DNA from: Clostridia bacterium
Lineage (GTDB): Bacteria; Bacillota; Clostridia; Christensenellales; CAG-314
Direction of reading: 5' to 3'
Assembly (NCBI GenBank): GCA_036654455.1
Contig: JAVVRZ010000001.1
Span: 193,345 to 257,344, forward strand
Length of the DNA stretch: 64,000 nucleotides
The notes beneath the pieces were generated by a model, which worked only from the letters and a program-made list of their open reading frames with translations, ran no database searches and had not been told where the DNA came from. A program made the position numbers and the translations under genes. Of this stretch, positions 5,900-40,841 are shown piece after piece; the first letter of the stretch is position 1; every line of letters starts with the position of its first letter.

Positions 5900-6262
5900 T
5901 TAAGACTTTTTAAAGTCGTCGTAGATAGTTTTTGCCGTATCAATAATTTTTGTAAAAGCGCTTTCTTCTTGCGCTTTAATTATTTTTACGCCGTCTTTGT
6001 TGACTACGAGAAACCCTACCGGAGTAACTGATGCGCCCCCACCCGAACCGCCTGCAAATTGATTGTCGTTTAGTTGCTTAAAGCCTTTTTTGCCGTATTC
6101 TCCCCCGCCTGCAACAAAAGCAAACGTTAGCTCGGACACCGGAAGAATTACGCTACCATCGCTTGTTACTATTGGTTGACCTACTATTGTGTTAACTTCG
6201 GCAAGATGCTTTATATTTGTAACGGCAGTATCAACTATTTGTTGTATTTGGTCGTTTTGCAT
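5900..6262 (-). CDS. ytfJ: sporulation protein YtfJ/GerW family
   Basis: 120 aa. GSVILPVS...AGGGEYG...GGSGGGASVTPVGFLVV matches the YtfJ pattern closely. Confidence 0.8.
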   Translation of the reverse strand: MQNDQIQQIVDTAVTNIKHLAEVNTIVGQPIVTSDGSVILPVSELTFAFVAGGGEYGKKGFKQLNDNQFAGGSGGGASVTPVGFLVVNKDGVKIIKAQEESAFTKIIDTAKTIYDDFKKS

Positions 6263-6761
6263 AAGTTTTCTCCTTGTTTTTAAATATTTCTATTAGTATC
6301 TTTAAAATACTTGTATTTATACTTAACCTAATTTGAGTTAAATTTTGGTTTATCGTATACACGCAAGCATATTTTAATTTGGAATTTGTATTATTGCTAA
6401 TTAAAATTGCGATTGAACTTGCAACAATATCTACGCTTTGCTCGATTAATAATTTCTTAGGTTTATCTAAACGAATATATCTTATGAGCGATATTTCATT
6501 AAGTTTAATTGCTTTTACTAAGAACATTTTACTTTTTCCTCCGCCTTTAACTAAATCTATATACTTTTTAGTAAATTTAAATGTCCCTTTACAATTAAAT
6601 CTATCGCTGAAAAACTCTAATATAATTGAGATTACTCTAATAAAAGAATATAAAAATATTTTTAGGTCTACAAAATTGCCTGCAACCTTAACTTTTACAA
6701 GTATATTGATTGGGCAAACTAAAATAATAATTAAGATAAGTAAAATGATTAAATATATCAT
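6231..6761 (-). CDS. YtfI-like membrane protein (DUF2953-like)
   Basis: 176 aa with an N-terminal TM. Its position immediately upstream of ytfJ matches the ytfI-ytfJ pair of Bacillus. The assignment rests mainly on context. Confidence 0.45.
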   Translation of the reverse strand: MIYLIILLILIIILVCPINILVKVKVAGNFVDLKIFLYSFIRVISIILEFFSDRFNCKGTFKFTKKYIDLVKGGGKSKMFLVKAIKLNEISLIRYIRLDKPKKLLIEQSVDIVASSIAILISNNTNSKLKYACVYTINQNLTQIRLSINTSILKILIEIFKNKEKTYAKRPNTTNS

Positions 6762-10573: not shown

Positions 10574-11722
10574 TTATTTAGTTAACTTATCCCAAAGCGA
10601 TTTAGAATTAAAATTAAGCCCAAGCTGTTCTCGTATAGTATCGGCGATTGCGTCAAAACCCTTGATTGTGCCTAAATTAGTAGGAATAATCTTGTCGCCA
10701 AACACAAGTAAAGGCGTATATTCTCTTGTGTGGTCTGTATGTTCTTTGTGACAAGGGTCATTTCCGTGATCGGCTGTTACATATAAAACATCGTCGGGCT
10801 TTAAGTATATCATAAGTTCGGCTAGCTTAATATCGATTTTTTCTAACGCCTGAGCGTAACCAAAAACATCACGACGGTGACCGTAAAGCATATCGGTATC
10901 AATTAAATTGACAAAGACAAGTCCGTCAAAGTCTTTCTTGGCAAGTTCGATTGTTTTGTCAAGCGATTCGGCATTATTGTGAGTGTGATAACTCTCGGTT
11001 AAACCCGAAAAATTAAATATATCTTCAATTTTGCCAACGCCAACGCTAGCAAGTCCGGCATTTGAAACATTGTTAAGTAAGGTGTCGCTAGGCGGAGAAA
11101 CAGAATAATCTTTGCGGTCGTCCGTTCTAACAAAAGGAAATTCTCCGGTAAAAGGACGAGCGATTATTCTACCTACGTTATATTTGCCAACGCAAAGCTT
11201 TCTTGCGATAGAACAAAACTCATATAACTTGGCAAGAGGAATAACATCGGTATGGACGGCTATTTGTAGTACGCTGTCGCCTGAGGTATAAACTATCGGG
11301 CAACCTGTCTTGATATGTTCTGCGCCGTAGTCTTTAAGCGCTTCCGTACCGCTATACGGCTTGTTAAGCAAAACTTTTACGCCAAAAGCGTCTTCGAGCT
11401 GTTGAATAAATTCGGGCGGAAAACCATCTGGAAAAGTTGGAAATGGCTGAGTAGTTACTACGCCTGCAATTTCCCAATGCCCTACCGTTGTATCTTTGGC
11501 TTTACTTAATTCTTCCATTCTTGCATAAGCGCCACGAATATTTTTGGTATCACAGTAAGTATTGTCAATGCTATATAGTCCAAGAGAAATAAGCGTTGGT
11601 ATATCCATATCATAGGAATTATAAATATTTTTAAGCGTGTTAGAACCACGATCGCCATAAAGACGCGCATCTGGCATCTCACCAATGCCAAGTCCATCAA
11701 TAACTAAAATAAAAGCTCTCAA
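10574..11722 (-). CDS. deoB: phosphopentomutase
   Basis: Start moved to the TTG at 11722, 9 nt after AGGAGG. This gives MRAFILVIDGLGIG, the typical DeoB N-terminus. The track start adds an implausible 19 aa. Confidence 0.85.
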   Translation of the reverse strand: MRAFILVIDGLGIGEMPDARLYGDRGSNTLKNIYNSYDMDIPTLISLGLYSIDNTYCDTKNIRGAYARMEELSKAKDTTVGHWEIAGVVTTQPFPTFPDGFPPEFIQQLEDAFGVKVLLNKPYSGTEALKDYGAEHIKTGCPIVYTSGDSVLQIAVHTDVIPLAKLYEFCSIARKLCVGKYNVGRIIARPFTGEFPFVRTDDRKDYSVSPPSDTLLNNVSNAGLASVGVGKIEDIFNFSGLTESYHTHNNAESLDKTIELAKKDFDGLVFVNLIDTDMLYGHRRDVFGYAQALEKIDIKLAELMIYLKPDDVLYVTADHGNDPCHKEHTDHTREYTPLLVFGDKIIPTNLGTIKGFDAIADTIREQLGLNFNSKSLWDKLTK

Positions 11723-11799
11723 TATTGCATACCTCCTATTGCTAAAATTATATAATAAAAAGCAAAAAATGACAATCAAATTGATGTGGTTACTGTCAA

Positions 11800-12369
11800 T
11801 TAAAAATATGTAAACGGTCTAATTAGTATAAAAACTATGATAGTTTGAGCAATCGAGATAATTAAACACAAAAGAACAAGCAGAACAAACTTATAGCAAA
11901 GGGCGCTTATATTTGCACAACTTAACCTACAATCATAGACGTGATTTACCGAATATAATACAATGGCTAAAATTACAACCGCTTGAATTATAAACAAAAA
12001 GACTATATACGGCAAAGCCATTAAACCTATGCTAGCTATACAAGACTTAATTGCAAATGCAGTTGTAAAAGCTTTTAACCAAGCTACGACGCAGCCAAAT
12101 CTTAGTAGCGGTCGATATAGAGCTAAAACAAAGAAAACGATTATAATTGCAAGGTATAACCATAAATTTTTAAATAAAACAGGAAAGAAACCTCCTTGTA
12201 TATAGACCGTAATATTTGTATATGAAATAGAATATAATTCGTATTCGCCATTTGCCTTAATAAATATTAGCCCCAAAACTAAACAAACAAGATAAATAGC
12301 AAGTACGAATATATTATATTTTTTATGCGCAAATAAACTTGCGTAAACATCCTTTAACAAATACCTCAT
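11800..12369 (-). CDS. polytopic membrane protein, possibly SpoIIM-like
   Basis: 189 aa with about 5 TM segments. Size, topology and neighbourhood (deoB, dacF-like, spoIVB) resemble SpoIIM, but no diagnostic motif was recognised. Confidence 0.3.
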   Translation of the reverse strand: MRYLLKDVYASLFAHKKYNIFVLAIYLVCLVLGLIFIKANGEYELYSISYTNITVYIQGGFFPVLFKNLWLYLAIIIVFFVLALYRPLLRFGCVVAWLKAFTTAFAIKSCIASIGLMALPYIVFLFIIQAVVILAIVLYSVNHVYDCRLSCANISALCYKFVLLVLLCLIISIAQTIIVFILIRPFTYF

Positions 12370-12410
12370 AATAAAAAATATGAGGTATATTGAATATATA
12401 TGTTAATTAT

Positions 12411-13472
12411 TTAGTTTTCGAGCATCCATTCGGCAAGAATACCATAACCTTTTGTAGGGTCGTTGATAAATACGTGTGTGAGCGCTCCTGCAAATGCGCC
12501 GTCTTGAATAATTGGGCTACCGCTCATTCCTTGCACAATTCCGCCGGTTAGTTCAAGTAAAGTTGGGTCAACAATTCTTACAACTAGCCCCTTGTCGCTC
12601 TTGGAAGTTTGTTGAACTACTTTTATTATTTCAATATCATATTCCCTAGGCGTATCGCCTATTACCGTTGAAATAACTTTCGCATTGCCCGGTTTGACTT
12701 GCGTGCTAGATAAAACCGGATATAATTTTTGTTCAAAGTCATCTGGTAAAGAAAAAACATTGCCGTAAGCGCCATATTTATTGTTTACATATAGCGTGCC
12801 TAAGGTGTCGCTAAGCGAAAAATTCCCTTTAAGTTCGCCTGCTTTACCTTTTTCGCCTTTAACTGCGCCGTTTATTTTACAGTTATAAATTCCGCCTTTT
12901 GTAATTTTTAAAATTTCGTTAGTATCGTGATTTAATATAGGGTGACCAAGGCTACCAAATTGAAGATTGTTTCTTATATAAGTCAACGTACCTATTCCCG
13001 TGGCGTTGTCTCTTGCCCAAATACCTAGCTTATATGTCTTAGACAGAACGTCTTTTCTAGGAGTAATCTTTGAAGATATAAGTTTATCGCCTCTAATAAA
13101 ACTTATATCGCAAGGCTTGCCTTGACTTGCGTTAGCAATATGAGTAAGCGTAGCTACGTTATTGATTTTAGTGCGGTCTAACTCGGTAATAATATCGCCG
13201 ATATTAATGCCTGCCTCTATTGCCGGAGAAACAACGCCCTCGCTTGAAACAAATTCGTTAAGCCCTATTACTGTTATGCCGTTGCCGTCAAGAGAAATAC
13301 CGATAGGTTTTCCGGATAAATAAACTTTTTCTCTAATAACTTTTTGCACTTGCGGAAAGAACAAATTATTTAATTCTTCTAAGGTTGGCGACGTAGTCTC
13401 TGCGTAAGCAAATTGCGGAAAAGCAAATAGACAAACAAAAAACAAAGCTACAAATATAAATATTTTTTTCAT
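12411..13472 (-). CDS. spoIVB: SpoIVB signalling serine peptidase (S55)
   Basis: 353 aa with signal peptide, PDZ-like region and GMSGSPI catalytic serine motif. It lies downstream of recN as in Bacillus. Confidence 0.85.
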   Translation of the reverse strand: MKKIFIFVALFFVCLFAFPQFAYAETTSPTLEELNNLFFPQVQKVIREKVYLSGKPIGISLDGNGITVIGLNEFVSSEGVVSPAIEAGINIGDIITELDRTKINNVATLTHIANASQGKPCDISFIRGDKLISSKITPRKDVLSKTYKLGIWARDNATGIGTLTYIRNNLQFGSLGHPILNHDTNEILKITKGGIYNCKINGAVKGEKGKAGELKGNFSLSDTLGTLYVNNKYGAYGNVFSLPDDFEQKLYPVLSSTQVKPGNAKVISTVIGDTPREYDIEIIKVVQQTSKSDKGLVVRIVDPTLLELTGGIVQGMSGSPIIQDGAFAGALTHVFINDPTKGYGILAEWMLEN

Positions 13473-13483
13473 AATTACTCCCT

Positions 13484-13514
13484 TATTGTTGTTTTAAGTA
13501 GTTTGTGAATATGC
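13484..13514 (-). promoter_or_regulatory. candidate forespore (sigma-F/G-like) promoter of spoIVB
   Basis: Minus strand: GCATA (13514-13510), 18-nt spacer, CAACAATA (13491-13484). This loosely resembles the recalled GCATA / CATAnnTA forespore consensus. Confidence 0.3.
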
Positions 13515-13523
13515 TTAGAAAAA

Positions 13524-13552
13524 TATTAAAAAAAAGAGCCTATTTAGGCTCT
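13524..13552 (-). terminator. rho-independent terminator after recN
   Basis: Minus strand: AGAGCC-taaata-GGCTCT followed by TTTTTTTT. Confidence 0.75.
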
Positions 13553-13628
13553 AAAAATTAAAAATATTAAAAAAGTAGTTTAGTTTATAAAAATAAATAT
13601 AAAAAAACTATAAAACTTAACAAAAGCG

Positions 13629-15329
13629 TTAGTTTACCTTTGATTTAGCGCTATTTGCCCACTCAATCATTTGCTCGGCATAGACAAGCGAAACCGAACT
13701 AATGTTTTCGCCCCCTGTAAGGCGAGCTATTTCGCTTATTTTTTGTTTTTGGTCAAGAACGGTTACATTTGTGCTTGTTTTATCGTCTATTGTCGACTTA
13801 GTTATTAGTAAATTGTAGTCGCCTATCGCAGCAACTTGCGGAAGGTGAGTGATTACTATGCATTGATAGTCTTTACTGACATTTGCAAGTTTTATCGCCA
13901 TTTTTTGAGCGATATTGCCGGAAATACCAAGGTCAATCTCGTCAAAAATCATTGTTGGTATTTGTTCGATTCTTGCGGTAATGTTCTTAATCGCCAACAT
14001 AAATCTTGACATTTCGCCACCGCTAATTACCTTTGCAAGCTGTTTAGTTGGTTCGCCCAAATTTGCGCTAAGCATAAATTCGACTTTGTCAAATCCGTTA
14101 GAGGAAATATGCTGAGAATATTCTTCTAAGGTAGGCGTTTGCGAAAAGAAAACGTCAAATGTAGCCGACTGCATACCTAAATCGGCAAGCTGTTGTTCGA
14201 TATCCTTTTTAAATAACTTTGCCGATTGTTTGCGATGAAGGGACAATTTGCAAGAAAGGTCGTACATTTTTGCGACTATTGCATCTTTTTGAGTTTGAAG
14301 TTTAGCGATTTGCTCGGTAGCGTTAGAAAGCATATCAAACTGTTTGATTGCATCTTGTAAAAAGTTATTAATCTCGTCAACATTTTGACCGTATTTGCGT
14401 TTAAGCGTTTTGTAAAGCTCAATACGTTGCTCTAAGATATCTATTTGATTAGGTTCGTATTCTATTTGAGAGAGTATATTAGAAAGCTCTTCGCATACGT
14501 CGTCAAGCTCAATCATACTAGCTTTTATTCTTTTTTGAAGCTCAAAGCATTGACTGTCAAGGTTTGAACAACAATTTAAACTTGAATTTGCCATTGAAAG
14601 TAGGTTTATAGCGTTTTCTTGATTTTGAGAAAGACTATCAAGCGCAACCGAAACGCCCTCTACAATTTTTTCGGCGTTAGCTATGCGAGCTTTTTGAGCA
14701 AGCAAATCGTCTTCTTCTTTGCTAGAAAGTTCTGCCTTGGTAATTTCGTCAATTTGATAATTTAATATGTCAAGCAAACGCTGTCTTTGACTATTATCTC
14801 CGCCAAAAACAAGTAGTTTAGAGTTAATATCCTTGTAATCTTTAAATAAAGCTGATAATTTGTCGGTTTGCTGACTTGGCATATAAGCGTCTAATACTTT
14901 AATATGGTTATCTACTTTAAATAAATTTTGATGTTGAGATTGTCCAAAAATATCTACCAAACAGCTTGTAAGCTCTTTTAGCATAGCCGTAGTTACTTGC
15001 CTGCCGTTTATGCGACATTCGTTTTTGCCCGAAGTAGTAAGAGTACGAGAAATAATTAAGGTTGTATCTTGTTCAAAACCTAATTCGTCTAGCTTAAAAT
15101 AAGCGTTAGAATTTTGCTCAATTTGAAACACAACCTCTACCCTTGCCTGCTCTTGACCGAATTTAATCATTGTTTTGTCGGCTCTTTCGCCCAAAACAAA
15201 GGCTAGCGAATCAATAATAATCGATTTGCCTGCGCCCGTTTCTCCGCTTAAAACGTTAAGACCATTTGAAAGGGCGATATCTAATTTGCCAATTAACGCA
15301 ATATTTCTAATATTTAAATTTGTAATCAT
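13629..15329 (-). CDS. recN: DNA repair protein RecN
   Basis: 566 aa. N-terminal Walker A GETGAGKS, coiled-coil middle and C-terminal signature ISGGEMSR. Confidence 0.9.
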   Translation of the reverse strand: MITNLNIRNIALIGKLDIALSNGLNVLSGETGAGKSIIIDSLAFVLGERADKTMIKFGQEQARVEVVFQIEQNSNAYFKLDELGFEQDTTLIISRTLTTSGKNECRINGRQVTTAMLKELTSCLVDIFGQSQHQNLFKVDNHIKVLDAYMPSQQTDKLSALFKDYKDINSKLLVFGGDNSQRQRLLDILNYQIDEITKAELSSKEEDDLLAQKARIANAEKIVEGVSVALDSLSQNQENAINLLSMANSSLNCCSNLDSQCFELQKRIKASMIELDDVCEELSNILSQIEYEPNQIDILEQRIELYKTLKRKYGQNVDEINNFLQDAIKQFDMLSNATEQIAKLQTQKDAIVAKMYDLSCKLSLHRKQSAKLFKKDIEQQLADLGMQSATFDVFFSQTPTLEEYSQHISSNGFDKVEFMLSANLGEPTKQLAKVISGGEMSRFMLAIKNITARIEQIPTMIFDEIDLGISGNIAQKMAIKLANVSKDYQCIVITHLPQVAAIGDYNLLITKSTIDDKTSTNVTVLDQKQKISEIARLTGGENISSVSLVYAEQMIEWANSAKSKVN

Positions 15330-24262: not shown

Positions 24263-25438
24263 CTACACAAAAGCGTTTACCGAACAAATTAGTAGCAATA
24301 TCACAACAAAGAGCATAAAAGCCACTGCAAGAACGGTTAAATATAGAACGGTTAACGATTTAGAAATACTTGAAAGAAAGCTAACTACTCTTTTATCGGT
24401 TACGGGTTCGGTAACGGCTGAGGCTAGTTGAAGGGATAAACTATACGCAATAATTTCAATAATCGGCGAAGTAATAATTGTAAGAAGGGCAAATAGCCCG
24501 ACAATTCCAAAAGCGTTTTTTATCAGCACGCTACTAGCTAAAATTAAGTCAAAACCTTCGGCAAGATAACCGCCTAATATAGGCACGTAATTTTTGGTAG
24601 CAAACTTTGCCGCCCTTATTGAAACGCTATCTATTGTGCCTGCGCTTACTCCTTTAATTGTCAAAAAAGCAGTAAATACAGTGAACACAATACCTAGTAT
24701 TATAGTTGCGCTACTATGAAAAAATTTGGCTAGTTTTTCTAATTTAATATTGCTAGAAAGGTTAGAAATAACAGTAAAAACTATGCTCATAATTGCAAGA
24801 GGCAAAATTGCGATTGTAACAATTTCTATTATTGTTCCGCAAAAAATTGCCACTGAGGGCTGAAAAACCGATAAAGTAACTTTACCGCCTATTGCCGAAA
24901 TCAGCGTCAAAAGTATAGGCAAAGCTAAATTTGATAATTTTTTAATATCTTGAATTGTACGCCTTGTATGTTCGATTAATTTCCAAACTGCAATTAAAGT
25001 AACTATTACAATTACTGCGTAACATACAAAATAAACAACCTCGCTTGTCCCTCTTATAAAGGAATTATCTTTTTTAACTAGCACTCCTAGCAATAGAGAA
25101 ATGACTACAATAGTTAGAACGCTAGGTAATAAGTCAATAATTTTACCAAAAAATATTTGTATAAGAAATTGAAAATAATCAATTTCCTGAACGTCCATTT
25201 CGCCTTTAATAATCTTTTTAACTGCGTCTACTACTCCGCTATTGATTAAAGAATTATCAAGAGTAGAAAGAAAATTTTCAAGTTCCTTCCAATTTAGTTG
25301 TTCAATTTGTTTATCAGTATTTTCTTGAATATTGTCTATAACTTCGCTTTCTTTGTCTGCATAGGCAAAATTACCACTAAGTATTATAAAAATAGTCAAT
25401 ATTAATAATACTATGACACAAATAGTATTCTTTTTCAC
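24263..25438 (-). CDS. spoIIIAE: stage III sporulation protein AE
   Basis: 391 aa, signal peptide plus polytopic membrane protein. Size and position are typical. Confidence 0.8.
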   Translation of the reverse strand: MKKNTICVIVLLILTIFIILSGNFAYADKESEVIDNIQENTDKQIEQLNWKELENFLSTLDNSLINSGVVDAVKKIIKGEMDVQEIDYFQFLIQIFFGKIIDLLPSVLTIVVISLLLGVLVKKDNSFIRGTSEVVYFVCYAVIVIVTLIAVWKLIEHTRRTIQDIKKLSNLALPILLTLISAIGGKVTLSVFQPSVAIFCGTIIEIVTIAILPLAIMSIVFTVISNLSSNIKLEKLAKFFHSSATIILGIVFTVFTAFLTIKGVSAGTIDSVSIRAAKFATKNYVPILGGYLAEGFDLILASSVLIKNAFGIVGLFALLTIITSPIIEIIAYSLSLQLASAVTEPVTDKRVVSFLSSISKSLTVLYLTVLAVAFMLFVVILLLICSVNAFV

Positions 25439-26019: not shown

Positions 26020-26472
26020 TTAAATTATTATGATACACAATAACACACCCACAAAAACCCCTAATTTTAACACCAATAACGCTTTACTTTTACTTTCGCT
26101 AGATACTTCTTCATATTTTTTATTAAAATATTTGCTGAAAAATTCTACTTCTTTTATTTGTGTTCTTGCATCATTTTTTCCTAAAAGATTAAAGAAATCT
26201 TTAATGTAGTTGGCTTCTTGTTGTGTTAAATACTTTAAACTTATATCTTTTCCCGAGTAATAAGCGTCTTTAATAGTTATAAATTCACTGCTATAACTAG
26301 GACTACTAAACAACGCTGACAATTTATCCAATTTGTACTCTAAGTTTGCCGTATAACTAGCGCAAAAAGAAACAAAGCTATAATAAAGTTTCTCTTTAAT
26401 TTTATATTTTTGAGATAACTTATAACCGATATATGTACAACTGACAACTAAGACAATACAAGCTAATTGCAT
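26020..26472 (-). CDS. spoIIIAB: stage III sporulation protein AB
   Basis: 150 aa with N- and C-terminal TM helices flanking a soluble domain. Assigned by cluster order. Confidence 0.6.
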   Translation of the reverse strand: MQLACIVLVVSCTYIGYKLSQKYKIKEKLYYSFVSFCASYTANLEYKLDKLSALFSSPSYSSEFITIKDAYYSGKDISLKYLTQQEANYIKDFFNLLGKNDARTQIKEVEFFSKYFNKKYEEVSSESKSKALLVLKLGVFVGVLLCIIII

Positions 26473-27317
26473 AGGTTACCTAAGTTGTCGTAAACGGCTT
26501 CGACCTGCCCTATTTGAGTTTTTTTATTGAGTAAAACTATATAGTCAAACATTTGTAAATTATCTTTCAACCTTGTTTTTATTGCTTTAAAGCTGTCGGC
26601 GTGAATTGAAGCGTATAATTTTATACCGCAACTTGTTATACTTTCAAGTTTTGTTATTTCTTCGTCGCTTAGTTCGTCGCAAATAATTACGTCGGGGTTT
26701 ACCGTTCTTATGCCAATTTGCATAGCGTAGACTTTTTCGCCTAAATAGACATCGCAATTTGTCATAGTTTCTAAGGCTATTTCTCGTCTTTCGTCAGCGA
26801 TTAAAACGTTATAATTATGTTTGCCTATAAATCTAGCAATATCTCTAAGCAAAGTAGTCTTACCACAACCCGGAGCGGAAGCTACAAGGACGTTACAAGG
26901 TGGAAAAATATATTGTTTTAGCTTGTCGCAACAACCAACAATATTATGCGGTAATCTTATTATTAGACTTGTGACGTCTTTGATTGTTCTTACTATGTTT
27001 GATTCTTTAACTAACGTTCCAACTACGCCAATGCGAATTCCATTAGAAATTGTGAGAAAACCTTGAACAATTTCCTGCGAATAAGCGTAAACCGAATGCT
27101 CGCAAGCAATAAATAAAATATCTTCTAATTGTTTGCCTGTTGTTACAAAACATTTATAGTCGCTGTTTACAAGTCCTCTATCGCTTAAATAGTTCCATTT
27201 GCCAAAAGCTAACACTCTAATTGGTTGATTTGCTCGTAGCCTCATCTCGCAAATATTGTTTATGCCAACAGCGTCTAAGACTTGTCCATATTCGGGTAAA
27301 AGACTCATCAAGTTCAT
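26463..27317 (-). CDS. spoIIIAA: stage III sporulation protein AA (secretion-type ATPase)
   Basis: 284 aa with Walker A SAPGCGKTTLLRD and Walker B-like VIICDEL. No recognisable SD lies upstream of either ATG candidate. Confidence 0.8.
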   Translation of the reverse strand: MNLMSLLPEYGQVLDAVGINNICEMRLRANQPIRVLAFGKWNYLSDRGLVNSDYKCFVTTGKQLEDILFIACEHSVYAYSQEIVQGFLTISNGIRIGVVGTLVKESNIVRTIKDVTSLIIRLPHNIVGCCDKLKQYIFPPCNVLVASAPGCGKTTLLRDIARFIGKHNYNVLIADERREIALETMTNCDVYLGEKVYAMQIGIRTVNPDVIICDELSDEEITKLESITSCGIKLYASIHADSFKAIKTRLKDNLQMFDYIVLLNKKTQIGQVEAVYDNLGNLCN

Positions 27318-37507: not shown

Positions 37508-37966
37508 TTAAAACTCTATATACGGCGTTATTTTTGCCGTAAGTGACTTCTTAAATGTGATTGGTTTATTATCTACTAATATTGTAACGTCTTCGTCAGT
37601 TTGAGATACCAACAAGCCGACATATTGCTTATGACCTAGGTAAGGAGCGTACAGCTTGACTACAACTTGTTTGCCACTGTTTTTTTGAAAATCCCATTCG
37701 GTTACAATAGCACGGTCTAAACCGGGAGAAGAAACGTTTAGAATATAGGACTGGTCGTCAGTAGGGTTAAGGTCGTCTAAGGGCTGGTCAATAGCTCTAT
37801 GCAAGGCTTCGCAATCGACAATTCCAACGCCCTCTTTCTTGTCGATAACGACAATTAAGTGCATTCCGTCAAATTGCTTAACATAATTAACTTCTACTAA
37901 ATATAGTCCTAAACTTTCGGCTATTGGCCTTACAAGTTGTTCGACATATTGACTAATTTTACTCAT
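37508..37966 (-). CDS. rimP: ribosome maturation factor RimP
   Basis: 152 aa, first gene of the rimP-nusA-infB operon, with the SSPGLDR motif. Confidence 0.85.
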   Translation of the reverse strand: MSKISQYVEQLVRPIAESLGLYLVEVNYVKQFDGMHLIVVIDKKEGVGIVDCEALHRAIDQPLDDLNPTDDQSYILNVSSPGLDRAIVTEWDFQKNSGKQVVVKLYAPYLGHKQYVGLLVSQTDEDVTILVDNKPITFKKSLTAKITPYIEF

Positions 37967-37988: not shown

Positions 37989-38010
37989 GAGAGCGGGCAA
38001 ACCCACTCTC
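37989..38010 (-). promoter_or_regulatory. leader hairpin (weak intrinsic terminator/attenuator candidate) in the rimP-nusA 5' UTR
   Basis: Minus strand: GAGAGUGGG-uuug-CCCGCUCUC (one G-U pair) followed by the interrupted U-tract AUAUUUAUGUAAGGAUG. It sits between the predicted promoter and the rimP SD. Confidence 0.45.
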
Positions 38011-38030: not shown

Positions 38031-38059
38031 ATTCTATCATAATAGGTTAAAATAATCAA
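38031..38059 (-). promoter_or_regulatory. sigma-A promoter of the rimP-nusA-infB operon
   Basis: Minus strand: TTGATT (38059-38054), 17-nt spacer, TAGAAT (38036-38031) preceded by TATGa. Confidence 0.55.
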
Positions 38060-38159: not shown

Positions 38160-39683
38160 TTATAGCAAATTGTTGTCTTTTACAAACATTTCAAGCAAAC
38201 AAACTGCCATACTCAGCGAAGTGTCAAGATATTCTTCTTGTATTAACGTTTGAAAAATTTCGCTAAGCGTTGAGTAATTTACCTTCTTTTTCTTTTTATC
38301 GCTTAGTCTTCTACCTAATAGATAGTTTTGCGAAAGTTGAATAAAGTCAAAATTTATGTTGTTAAAATAGTAACCGTAACCCGTTGCGTAGTATTTAATA
38401 AATGACATAGCGACTTCTATATTTAGCCCAACCACAACAGAATTAGCGCAAAACTTAAATAAATCTGGAATAATATCGGTAATAGTAGGCGACTCAATCA
38501 ATTTTGCATTGTCAACCCCTTCTATATCAAGAATTATTTCGGGGTTAATTAAAGTCGAAAAGCCAGAAGTAATCTTACCATTTTCAATTTTTGTACAATT
38601 AATCGAATAAACCTTGTCTTCTAACACTTTTTGACCGCTAGATTTTAAATCTAAGGTAACAATTACATTATTTTGTAAATATTCGCAAGTTTTTTCACCG
38701 CCAATTTTTATTTGTTCGGGAACGGCAACTTTTGTTGGCTTAATCAATAAATATTTCTCGGGCATAGGTTTTGTCGTATTAACATTTTCTTCCATTGGTA
38801 GAATATTACAAAGAGAAATGTCATAAACTTTTAATTCTAATTGTTTACTGTAATTTGAAAAACTTACTGCGCCACAAACAAGCGCATCAAGGTCATTTCT
38901 CAAAGTCGATAATTTAAGGGCAACGTCGTTACGCCCAAAAGCTACGGCTTGTATGCTACCGCTATAATCGGTTAGAGTAAATTTATAGATAATCGCCGTT
39001 GTTTTTTTAGATTCCAGTATATTGAAATTAGATATTTTACCGCAAACGACGCAAGATTTTTGCGTATCGACTAGGTCAATAATATATCGTGGTTGACTAA
39101 GTATCTTTTTGCCGACAAAACGTTCGACGTTTACAACTTTATTAAATCGTTTAGGCTTAGAAAGCTCGGCGTTAAGACTAATTTGTTGGTAAACTTTAAC
39201 CTGTTCTTTTAGAGTGTCAATTTTAGTATCGCTACTGTGAACCATTATAGAAATATTAAAAGTTAAAGCAGATATATTTGTAAAAGTTGACTGTAATTGT
39301 TGCTTAATTTGAGCATTTTCAAATATTTGAAAAGTCAGCTTATCTAAATCGAAAGCAATATCGCACTTGCCATCATTAAGTAAAATTGAAGGTTGAGTAG
39401 TTAGACGATGCTTAATTGATGGGTGGTCGTCCATAAATTGTTGGATAATTTCCTCAACTTCTTCATTCGTGAAAGTATCAAGCATAAATTTAATGTAACA
39501 TTCGTAAGAATTATCGTTAAATTTATAGGTAAGAGCCCTAATTTGTTTTTTTTGCTCCTCGCTTAAAGAATTTTTAGTACAAAAAGTATAAGTTACGTCT
39601 TGTCTATTCGTATCAATGACAGTTTTGCGTAACCTTAAATCTTCATATTTGCCTGTAACTTCTCTTATTTTTTGAGCTAACAT
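38160..39683 (-). CDS. PolC-like N-terminal/OB-fold protein with a degenerate DnaQ-like exonuclease domain and no PHP or polymerase domains
   Basis: 507 aa in the canonical polC slot (ispG-X-rimP). Residues ~205-292 (CVVCGKISNF...FTLTDYSGSIQAVAF...) resemble the PolC OB domain. Residues ~338-500 resemble the PolC exonuclease domain, but the catalytic positions read D-L-K (ExoI), N-I-E-V-A (ExoII) and Q-x4-D (ExoIII). Confidence 0.5.
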   Translation of the reverse strand: MLAQKIREVTGKYEDLRLRKTVIDTNRQDVTYTFCTKNSLSEEQKKQIRALTYKFNDNSYECYIKFMLDTFTNEEVEEIIQQFMDDHPSIKHRLTTQPSILLNDGKCDIAFDLDKLTFQIFENAQIKQQLQSTFTNISALTFNISIMVHSSDTKIDTLKEQVKVYQQISLNAELSKPKRFNKVVNVERFVGKKILSQPRYIIDLVDTQKSCVVCGKISNFNILESKKTTAIIYKFTLTDYSGSIQAVAFGRNDVALKLSTLRNDLDALVCGAVSFSNYSKQLELKVYDISLCNILPMEENVNTTKPMPEKYLLIKPTKVAVPEQIKIGGEKTCEYLQNNVIVTLDLKSSGQKVLEDKVYSINCTKIENGKITSGFSTLINPEIILDIEGVDNAKLIESPTITDIIPDLFKFCANSVVVGLNIEVAMSFIKYYATGYGYYFNNINFDFIQLSQNYLLGRRLSDKKKKKVNYSTLSEIFQTLIQEEYLDTSLSMAVCLLEMFVKDNNLL

Positions 39684-39764
39684 TTTTACCTTTTGTACCT
39701 TTAAGTTGAGTTAGAATATATTAAAACGAATAATTATCACAAATATACTTATATTTTTAGTGGT

Positions 39765-40841
39765 TTATTTAGAATTTAATTGTTTTTCAATCACAAGTTT
39801 GTCAATCTCTTGTAAAAAAAGCTTTACTGCGTCTTTTTTATCAACTTTTTTGTAAATAACGCCTTTTTTAAAAAATGAAATTTGTCTACCGCCGGCAAGA
39901 CCTAGTTCGGCACTTGCGCATTCGCCCGGTCCGTTGACTTCGCAACCCATAACGGCTATTTTTAGTTGAACATTAATATTTTTTACATAATCGTATACTT
40001 GTTTTGCAACCGAAACTAAGTCAATTTGGCATCTTCCACACATTGGGCAAGACACAAGGTCAACTTTTTGCTGTGGATAACCACATTCTTGAAGAATATT
40101 TCTAGCTACGATTACTTCTTCGATTGGATTTTCGGTAAGCGAAACTCTAATGGTATCCCCTATGCCTTGACTGAGCAAAGTAGAAATTGCCAAAGTGTTT
40201 TTAACTATTCCGTATTGCATAACGCCGGCTTCGGTAAGCCCGATATGTAACGGATAATCAAATTTTTGAGAAAGAGCGCAATTTACAGCTATTGTTTGAC
40301 TAACTGAGGTGCTTTTTGCCGACAAAACAAGTTTTGTAAATTTGCGTTGCTCAAACATATCTATGTATTGAGAAATGCCCGATAAAAAAACTTCTTGCTG
40401 GCTTAACCCTTTTGAAAGTAGGTCTTTGTCGAGAGAACCGCTATTTACGCCTATTCTTATAGCTGTATTGTGTTCTTTTGCCGAATCTATAATATAATTT
40501 AAAGACTCTTTTGGAAAATTACCGGGATTTATACGAATTTTTGCCACACCGCTTTCGATAGACTTTAAAGCAAACTGAGCGTTAAAATGTATATCGGCGA
40601 CAATGGGCAAAGAGCAAGAGCTTACAATTTTAGACAAGGCATTTGCGTCTTCTTGACAAAAAACAGCAAGCCTAACTATATCGCAGTTGACTCTTTTAAG
40701 CTGTTCAATTTGTAGAAGTGTAGCGTCTATATCTCTTGTCTTAGTGTTTGTCATAGACTGAACGGCTATTTTGTTGTTTCCGCCTATTACAACGCTCCCG
40801 ATATTAATTTCTTTGGTAATCCTTCTCATAGCTAAAACCAT
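39765..40841 (-). CDS. ispG: 4-hydroxy-3-methylbut-2-en-1-yl diphosphate synthase
   Basis: 358 aa with C-terminal Fe-S cysteines (CPMCGRC...GCEVNGPGE). The start could be the ATG at 40841 or the one at 40829. Confidence 0.9.
   Translation of the reverse strand: MVLAMRRITKEINIGSVVIGGNNKIAVQSMTNTKTRDIDATLLQIEQLKRVNCDIVRLAVFCQEDANALSKIVSSCSLPIVADIHFNAQFALKSIESGVAKIRINPGNFPKESLNYIIDSAKEHNTAIRIGVNSGSLDKDLLSKGLSQQEVFLSGISQYIDMFEQRKFTKLVLSAKSTSVSQTIAVNCALSQKFDYPLHIGLTEAGVMQYGIVKNTLAISTLLSQGIGDTIRVSLTENPIEEVIVARNILQECGYPQQKVDLVSCPMCGRCQIDLVSVAKQVYDYVKNINVQLKIAVMGCEVNGPGECASAELGLAGGRQISFFKKGVIYKKVDKKDAVKLFLQEIDKLVIEKQLNSK

Follow-up and report, generated by a model that had tools for sequence, protein, structure and literature searches.

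Which gene fills the polC slot of this clostridial chromosome, and what does its product do? The interval between ispG and rimP-nusA-infB is the classical polC slot of Firmicutes, as in B. subtilis and Clostridium. PolC is, to our knowledge, regarded as a universal and essential hallmark of the Firmicutes. It is linked to the strand-biased genomes of these bacteria, where extreme gene co-orientation is associated with PolC-type replication, and a new class of antibiotics (ibezapolstat) is directed against it. In the 64,000-nucleotide stretch of Clostridia bacterium DNA analysed here (assembly GCA_036654455.1, contig JAVVRZ010000001.1; hereafter the window), the slot holds an open reading frame (ORF) of 507 residues, about one third of the length expected at a polC locus. 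Our conclusion is that this gene encodes a stand-alone, PolC-derived accessory protein of the replisome and not a polymerase, a reading to which we assign a probability of roughly 60%.

Domain architecture of the 507-residue protein

The ORF and the parts into which its product divides are as follows.

38160..39683, minus strand: whole ORF (507 residues plus stop, ATG start), a short protein in the polC slot with the order N-terminal domain (NTD), OB fold, linker motif, exonuclease (Exo) domain
39237..39683, minus strand: residues 1-149, PolC-type NTD, two repeated alpha/beta subdomains in the AlphaFold2 model (predicted local distance difference test score, pLDDT, about 90); also detected by hhalign and PRK00448
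39069..39236, minus strand: residues 150-205, helix and connector joining the NTD to the OB fold
38802..39068, minus strand: residues 206-294, PolC-type OB fold (Pfam, Foldseek, hhalign)
38670..38801, minus strand: residues 295-338, OB-Exo linker with near-invariant Y311 and P316, replacing the N-terminal PHP segment of PolC
38700..38714, minus strand: residues 324-328, QIKIG, an eroded copy of the family linker motif
38175..38669, minus strand: residues 339-503, DnaQ-like (RNase H-like) exonuclease fold with a dead active site

The sole domain that Pfam finds in the protein is the OB fold (PF01336, residues 212-290, E 1.3e-6). In NCBIfam, the PolC model PRK00448 (1445 positions) covers residues 11-293 with its positions 23-325 (E 1e-16; 59.7 bits against a cut-off of 873), and residues ∼335-480 are matched by models of DEDD exonucleases (E 1e-13), these too scoring far below their family cut-offs. 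A profile built from the first 300 residues of 29 relatives was compared by hhalign with one of 12 full-length PolC N-termini; the match had a probability of 98.2% (E 4.8e-14) and ran through 271 collinear columns spanning both the NTD and the OB fold.

In an AlphaFold2 model built from 35 sequences (mean pLDDT 85), a two-lobed alpha/beta NTD is joined through a helix and connector to an OB barrel, after which come a linker that is disordered in part and the RNase H-like domain. Searched against the PDB with Foldseek, the model has full-length E. faecium PolC as its top match (9qpc_A, 385 columns, E 5e-12). The next matches are DnaQ, epsilon and DinG-exo domains, with a root mean square deviation (RMSD) of 2.8-4 Å and a template modelling (TM) score of ∼0.7 normalised to the target, and the exonuclease fold also matches RNase T and oligoribonuclease. 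The OB fold matches that of G. kaustophilus PolC (3f2b) over 97-104 columns at 3.5 Å. Given that the PolC NTD is unresolved in solved structures (PMC12592400), homology of this domain is argued from profiles only. A preliminary description of this DNA, made from the sequence alone, had proposed the same division into PolC NTD, OB fold and DnaQ-like domain, and profiles, model, Foldseek and alignment all bear it out: the OB and RNase H-like folds are supported by the structural comparison, and the NTD by hhalign.

Equally informative is what the protein lacks. A hidden Markov model (HMM) built from 15 full-length PolCs aligns to the short proteins only at PolC positions ∼95-355 and ∼458-625; no counterpart of positions 355-458 (the first PHP segment), or of anything past 625, was found in them with this HMM. 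Pfam and NCBIfam give no PHP match in the 507-residue protein. Palm, thumb, fingers, (HhH)2 and the C-terminal clamp motif are absent, the protein ending ∼5 residues past the ExoIII helix, and no frame of the window matches the polymerase part of the PolC HMM. The earlier statement that PHP, palm, thumb and fingers are missing is thus upheld by the PolC HMM, Pfam and NCBIfam. Since the N-terminal PHP segment that precedes Exo in PolC has gone as well, the gene has been remodelled and not simply shortened. These results support the conclusion that the protein is a PolC NTD plus a PolC-type OB fold plus a DnaQ-like pseudo-exonuclease, with neither PHP nor polymerase.

An old family of short proteins at the polC locus

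A word-indexed search supplied the first three short relatives, of 520-548 residues. An exhaustive HMMER profile search of 1.84 billion representatives then gave 433 matches at E≤1e-30, with the window protein as the top match of the family profile (E 1e-225). The best 150 family matches reach E≤1e-66 without exception and span the full profile; nearly every one is 500-550 residues long, so that the family counts at least 150 cluster representatives (50%-clusters). Median pairwise identity among these 150 representatives is 28%, which indicates that the short family is old.

Among the best 80 loci in GTDB (one genome per species, 80 different assemblies), the short ORF occurs in at least 59 species. 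The carriers are labelled Christensenella sp., Christensenellaceae, Catabacter, Ca. Scatosoma, Ca. Coproplasma, Subdoligranulum sp. CAG:314 or Clostridia bacterium. Full-length, Exo-containing PolCs account for 21 of the GTDB matches, those of Lachnospiraceae being ordinary proteins of 1466-1555 residues, and among these best 80 loci none of the 21 comes from a genome with the short form. The preliminary description had asked whether relatives conserve the short form together with a full-length PolC; relatives do conserve the short form, while the full-length companion was not seen among the best 80 loci.

The short gene (X) lies in the order ispG-X-rimP-nusA-ylxR-infB in the window and in loci L001, L005, L006/7, L088 and L090, and in the order rseP-X in L002/3; it occupies the polC slot in all loci whose gene content was inspected. 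Source annotations of family members read only 'hypothetical protein' or 'exonuclease domain-containing protein', and neither Pfam nor NCBIfam holds a model dedicated to the short family. The gene is therefore not a one-off truncation: it belongs to a large and old family, whose proteins of 500-550 residues fill the polC slot of many Christensenellales-type Clostridia. An abundant group of uncultured gut Clostridia carries at its ancestral polC locus a short exonuclease-type protein, not a polymerase.

Four loci deserve separate mention. L001 (GCA_023665205.1, JAMPEJ010000005.1) is labelled 'Corallococcus sp.', a myxobacterial genus, while its synteny (rpsB-tsf-pyrH-frr-...-ispG-X-rimP-nusA) is typical of Firmicutes, and it is almost certainly a taxonomic mislabel of a Clostridia metagenome-assembled genome (MAG). 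L011 (JBFXFT010000004.1), from a MAG labelled 'Spirochaetales bacterium', carries a 534-residue short gene with an intact DEDDh signature; mis-binning or a wrong label may explain this, or the family may extend beyond Clostridia. In L043 a 1110-residue EAL+GGDEF cyclic-di-GMP protein (11610-14939, opposite strand) follows directly after the short gene and breaks the otherwise conserved slot. A 1182-residue surface protein with InlB B-repeats or BspA-type leucine-rich repeats lies directly 3' of the short gene at L031:4964-8509, as it does at L054:11495-15043.

The survey of C-family polymerases in PMC3919608 discarded fragments without a polymerase active site, so the short family would be missed by such systematic surveys. 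A second survey (PMC12926913), of complete genomes, took into account no proofreaders other than those embedded in PolC, fused to DnaE1 or of the canonical DnaQ type. PMC3919608, PMC12926913 and Saha 2014 make no mention of short PolC-like proteins or of Clostridia lacking PolC; in the accessible portion of the PMC12926913 supplement, Christensenella minuta appears in the genome table only, with its polymerases not listed. Full-text literature searches returned no description of the short family. The domains themselves are known; apparently undescribed are their stand-alone arrangement, which includes a clamp-like motif of its own, and the sub-clade, treated below, that has lost catalysis.

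Loss of the exonuclease active site in one clade

At the DEDDh positions the window protein retains D345 and has lost the other four residues (E to K347, D to A425, H to Y485, D to M492), so that one of five is kept. These positions agree between a phmmer alignment to the T. maritima PolC Exo domain (2p1j) and a 148-member family alignment. The earlier readings of ExoI (D345-L-K) and ExoII (A425), and of an ExoIII without its His and Asp, are confirmed by this alignment check; the ExoIII register first proposed, Q-E-E-Y-L-D, was shifted, the true positions being Y485 and M492.

Most of the family is different. The DEDDh signature is intact in 124 of the 148 members (∼84%, an approximate figure, given that the family profile was seeded with three dead members and one active member and that the best 150 over-represent the dead clade). 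About 21 of the 148 are degenerate at these positions, and 20 of these form one clade without an active member in a simple neighbour-joining tree of pairwise distances, from which we infer that catalysis was lost once. As judged from these alignments, the ancestral and majority state of the family is probably a catalytically intact DEDDh exonuclease, of which the window protein would be a secondary, exo-dead derivative.

The positions lost across the dead clade are both catalytic and substrate-contacting (D345, E347, E360, F424, D425, H485, R488 and D492), and positions that are structural to the fold have been kept (G350, K365, G369, P381, D407, F411 and N442). Residues R17, R19, D69, P177, Y431 and Y432 are conserved specifically in this clade, P177 in the NTD-OB connector being invariant. 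Identity within Exo is 0.30 in the dead clade versus 0.46 in the active clade, and that within the connector (residues 150-205) is 0.34 versus 0.20. Relative conservation in the dead clade has thus moved from Exo towards the NTD, connector and OB fold.

For two dead-clade genes with 41% protein identity, the proportion of synonymous differences (pS) is 0.76 and that of nonsynonymous differences (pN) 0.40; for the Exo domain alone the values are pS 0.77 and pN 0.42. Synonymous sites are saturated in this pair, so that in place of a dN/dS ratio only pN<pS can be stated. Even so, pN lies below a saturated pS, which argues that the whole ORF is under purifying selection and that the window protein is a pseudo-enzyme, not the product of a pseudogene. 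The suggestion that the gene is a domesticated PolC remnant survives in so far as it is conserved and under purifying selection. It does not survive as a lineage-specific leftover, since the family is old, large and spread over many Christensenellales-type Clostridia.

The exo-dead clade would be a natural separation-of-function mutant, pointing to a catalysis-independent role of the NTD-OB-Exo module and bearing on the function of the PolC NTD.

Several dead-clade members of 543-549 residues, P0003, P0006 and P0009 among them, carry a ∼30-residue insertion inside the OB fold (IRLQTQDFEILRRESDKPDSEVHTLSKKRAVA in P0003, for example), which is absent from the window protein and from active members.

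A conserved motif in the OB-Exo linker

The linker between the OB fold and Exo is otherwise variable and of low pLDDT, and within it the family has a motif, Q-x-[NDS]-[LFIM]-[FL]. The glutamine is present in 145 of 148 members, a hydrophobic residue at position 4 in 142 and F or L at position 5 in 123; a strict regular expression finds the motif within residues 301-360 in 104 of 148 members versus 2 of 148 shuffled sequences. The bacterial beta-clamp-binding motif is reportedly QL[SD]LF (the Dalrymple consensus), which the Q-x-[NDS]-L-F motif resembles at the sequence level. The full-length PolCs examined end in a motif of this kind, QLSLF-D, at the very C-terminus. Dead-clade members have often lost the final motif position (QLALE, QMDFT, QLNFV), and the QIKIG of the window protein departs from the consensus at three of five positions.

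A proposed role at the replisome

How might such a protein work? The majority of members would be trans-acting proofreading 3'-5' exonucleases. We propose that the linker motif tethers these active members to the beta sliding clamp, as happens with E. coli epsilon, that the NTD could tether the protein to the replisome through the clamp loader or tau, and that the OB fold may hold single-stranded template DNA. Contact with the clamp loader is a role already proposed for the PolC NTD (PMC3919608). The window protein, predicted to be unable to hydrolyse DNA and with a weak putative clamp motif, has most likely been kept as a non-catalytic scaffold or single-stranded-DNA-binding subunit acting through its NTD, connector and OB fold. 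The partner polymerase would be encoded elsewhere.

Several points weigh against this proposal and hold our estimate to the value given above. The clamp, tau and single-stranded DNA-binding roles are suggested by ancestry and resemblance, and the motif was assigned by likeness of sequence only. A replisome role is deduced from ancestry and gene position, and the partner polymerase was not found; the place beside rimP-nusA-infB is moreover a legacy of polC and tells us nothing of what the protein does today. Repair, or the processing of RNA or DNA ends, would be an equally fitting task for a DEDDh enzyme that has an OB fold. Even the putative clamp tethering may be lost in the window protein, given its QIKIG. 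Finally, the profile was seeded mostly from dead members, so the fractions quoted are approximate, and the tree is a simple neighbour-joining one.

Comparison with known systems helps to place the family. With the PolCs of B. subtilis, G. kaustophilus and E. faecium (PRK00448/TIGR01405), the short proteins share their chromosomal slot and homologous NTD, OB and DnaQ-type exonuclease domains, 9qpc being the best structural match. They differ in having one third of the length and no PHP domain (even the strands before Exo are gone), palm, thumb, fingers, HhH or C-terminal clamp motif, and the window protein in addition lacks four of the five exonuclease catalytic residues.

The family majority resembles E. 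coli epsilon (DnaQ) in being a separate polypeptide with the DEDDh fold (RMSD ∼3.5 Å over ∼178 columns) and in having a motif of the Q-x-x-L/M-x-F type beside the exonuclease domain in a flexible segment. However, this motif is N-terminal to the exonuclease in the short family and C-terminal in epsilon, the short family has no C-terminal PHP-binding tail, and it adds a PolC NTD and OB fold, having descended from PolC and not from the dnaQ lineage. The window protein differs further, with a dead catalytic site and a degenerate motif. By analogy, the short family probably works most like a stand-alone epsilon, yet is PolC-descended and carries the PolC NTD and OB fold.

Exo-less PolC (Timinskas et al. 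2014) is complementary, lacking exactly the domain that the short family keeps, and belongs to the same broad group of PolC+DnaE1 Firmicutes; it is, however, a polymerase, and its retrievable examples, within the accessible part of the source, are from Negativicutes. Inactive DnaQ-like structural modules, such as the inactive 3'-5' exonuclease domains of many Pol I orthologs, PolA2 and PolB2 (PMC12926913), offer a precedent for a DEDD fold selected after catalytic loss, although they sit within the chain of an active polymerase, whereas the dead domain of the window lies in a protein without one.

Which polymerase might the short protein serve?

A polymerase gene adjoining the short gene in relatives was considered and rejected: scanning all ORFs with the PolC HMM found nothing in the short-form loci, there being no match to the polymerase part in ∼60 such loci of ±10 kb. 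In this genome no polymerase gene was found in 84 kb (the window plus 10 kb past each end). The large ORFs near the short gene in relatives are purL (FGAM synthase), infB, the GGDEF/EAL gene and the InlB/BspA-repeat gene, with five others giving no family match. A profile search with the family NTD+OB, aimed at a paralogous PolC, returned only short proteins, the word-index search involved being insensitive, and a second family-profile search returned just four known members.

There are three possible explanations that say where the polymerase is. The first, which is a special case of the accessory-protein reading and names the partner, is that PolC has been split and subfunctionalised: after a duplication, NTD-OB-Exo was retained in the slot, and a second copy at another site became an NTD-OB-PHP-Pol3-HhH polymerase without Exo. 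On this view PolC would be encoded by two genes, with the short protein as its detached proofreading subunit, dead in the window clade because the PHP domain proofreads. Exo-less PolCs are documented, and only in Clostridia and Negativicutes, making up 6% of all PolCs and 16% of the PolCs in PolC+DnaE1 genomes (PMC3919608). They have the NTD-OB-PHP-Pol3-HhH architecture with an intact PHP metal site, one example in the accessible part of that paper being the 1191-residue protein of Acidaminococcus; the examples in that part of its table are, however, Negativicutes and not the lineages that carry the short gene. All called genes lie on one strand over the ∼84 kb, a layout typical of PolC-bearing Firmicutes, though only a weak indication that this genome is of the PolC type, and the lack of short-form genomes behind the 21 Exo-containing PolCs among the best 80 GTDB loci also fits a split. 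Against it, an Exo-less PolC from a short-form genome was not retrieved, and the NTD+OB profile, of limited sensitivity, found short proteins only. We hold this explanation tentatively, as a possibility well short of even odds. If it were true, nature would have split a replicase into polymerase and proofreader, converging on the E. coli alpha/epsilon arrangement.

The second explanation is that the PolC polymerase has been lost, that DnaE1 alone replicates the chromosome, and that PolC was reduced in situ to an accessory exonuclease or scaffold of a DnaE1 replisome. At all loci inspected for gene content, the short gene stands in for polC as its positional ortholog, and the PolC HMM found no polymerase part in the ∼60 loci or in the 84 kb here. 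Clostridial DnaE1 has the full typical architecture with a conserved PHP site and clamp motif (PMC3919608), and, like E. coli epsilon, the short family has acquired a clamp-binding-like motif of its own. However, 20-84 kb per genome cannot demonstrate absence, most carriers being MAGs of unknown completeness; PolC is present in every Firmicute surveyed so far (PMC3919608; PMC12926913); and the extreme co-orientation of genes is a hallmark of PolC genomes. We consider this loss unlikely, if far from negligible. In its broadest form, the loss would extend to an entire branch of Clostridia, gut and digester bacteria of the Christensenellales type, which would use DnaE1 alone, the first Firmicutes known to do so, with PolC left as a proofreading module tethered to clamp or tau, and as a dead scaffold in the window sub-clade. 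This too we view with some doubt. If DnaE1 alone were used, the rule that all Firmicutes use PolC would fall, and such a branch should be intrinsically insensitive to PolC-targeting antibiotics such as ibezapolstat.

The third explanation, close to the second alternative of the preliminary description (a paralog left behind by a relocated polC), places an intact, full-length polC elsewhere in the genome, the copy in the slot being either in decay or neofunctionalised outside replication, in repair or end trimming for instance. DEDDh and OB proteins do act in many repair and RNA-processing contexts, and the Foldseek matches include DinG-exo, RNase T and oligoribonuclease. Yet decay is excluded, given an ORF that stays intact over saturated synonymous divergence, pN well below pS, and hundreds of members, while the replisome is where a conserved clamp-like motif and a PolC NTD that has been kept would lead one to look, and no full-length PolC from a short-form genome is among the GTDB matches at the best 80 loci. 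We regard this explanation as improbable. The probability that remains belongs to the accessory-protein reading being true with none of these three descriptions of the partner being true.

We give practically no credence to an artefact (misassembly, a polC broken by a frameshift, or a split-intein or read-through gene with an overlooked second half), despite the MAG source and an ORF of one third the expected length: NCBI GCA_036652855.1 and a Logan assembly, the work of two assemblers, have identical sequence for the gene and its flanks over 19.5 kb, only 193 nt separate the stop codon from rimP, no frame of the window matches the polymerase part, the ∼5 residues after the last exonuclease helix leave no room for an N-intein, and the same architecture recurs in the at least 59 GTDB species and at least 150 cluster representatives given above. 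The preliminary description was therefore right that this is no assembly truncation.

An anti-phage defence DEDDh protein was also considered and rejected; PADLOC gave only generic DEDDh-domain matches (E 1e-9 to 1e-10), and the context is one of core housekeeping genes.

Genomic context and minor features

The ORF call and its neighbours bear out the slot as originally described, a 507-residue ORF between ispG, 81 nt away, and rimP-nusA. An in-frame stop codon lies 27 nt 5' of the ATG (stop-to-stop frame 38163-39710), so that an N-terminal extension of ORF 38160..39683 is impossible. The features flanking the ORF are these.

39765..40841, minus strand: ispG (GcpE), upstream neighbour, its end 81 nt from the ORF
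38031..38059, minus strand: promoter-like site, TTGATT-17-TAGAAT with an extended -10 TG, in the gap before rimP (a consensus match only)
37989..38010, minus strand: GC-rich stem-loop, GAGAGTGGG-TTTG-CCCGCTCTC, 9 bp, directly 5' of the rimP start codon and downstream of the promoter-like site
37508..37966, minus strand: rimP, downstream neighbour, 193 nt from the ORF, followed by nusA-ylxR-infB-rbfA

The gene order 5' of the ORF is frr, uppS, cdsA, dxr, rseP, ispG. The wider backbone of the window is B. subtilis-like, with yifB-dprA-topA-trmFO-hslVU on one side and the spoIIIA operon, xseA, ispA, dxs, recN and spoIVB on the other, and the longest ORF anywhere in the window is at most 908 residues. 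A promoter and a rimP leader had been suggested downstream of the ORF. A promoter-like site and a stem-loop are indeed there, whereas the leader found no support, the stem-loop having no match to any Rfam family, rimP-leader included; it could be a regulatory hairpin. Horizontal acquisition of the ORF was considered and set aside, its GC content of 0.318 being unremarkable against the window mean of 0.364 (z -1.25).

The lowest GC content in the window, 0.239, belongs to a 176-residue ORF at 6231-6761 (minus strand); its counterpart in L092 has no Pfam family on record. On the same strand, spoIVB, spoIIIAE and spoIIIAA are present at window positions 12411-13472, 24263-25438 and 26463-27317, and from these genes the source organism is probably an endospore former.

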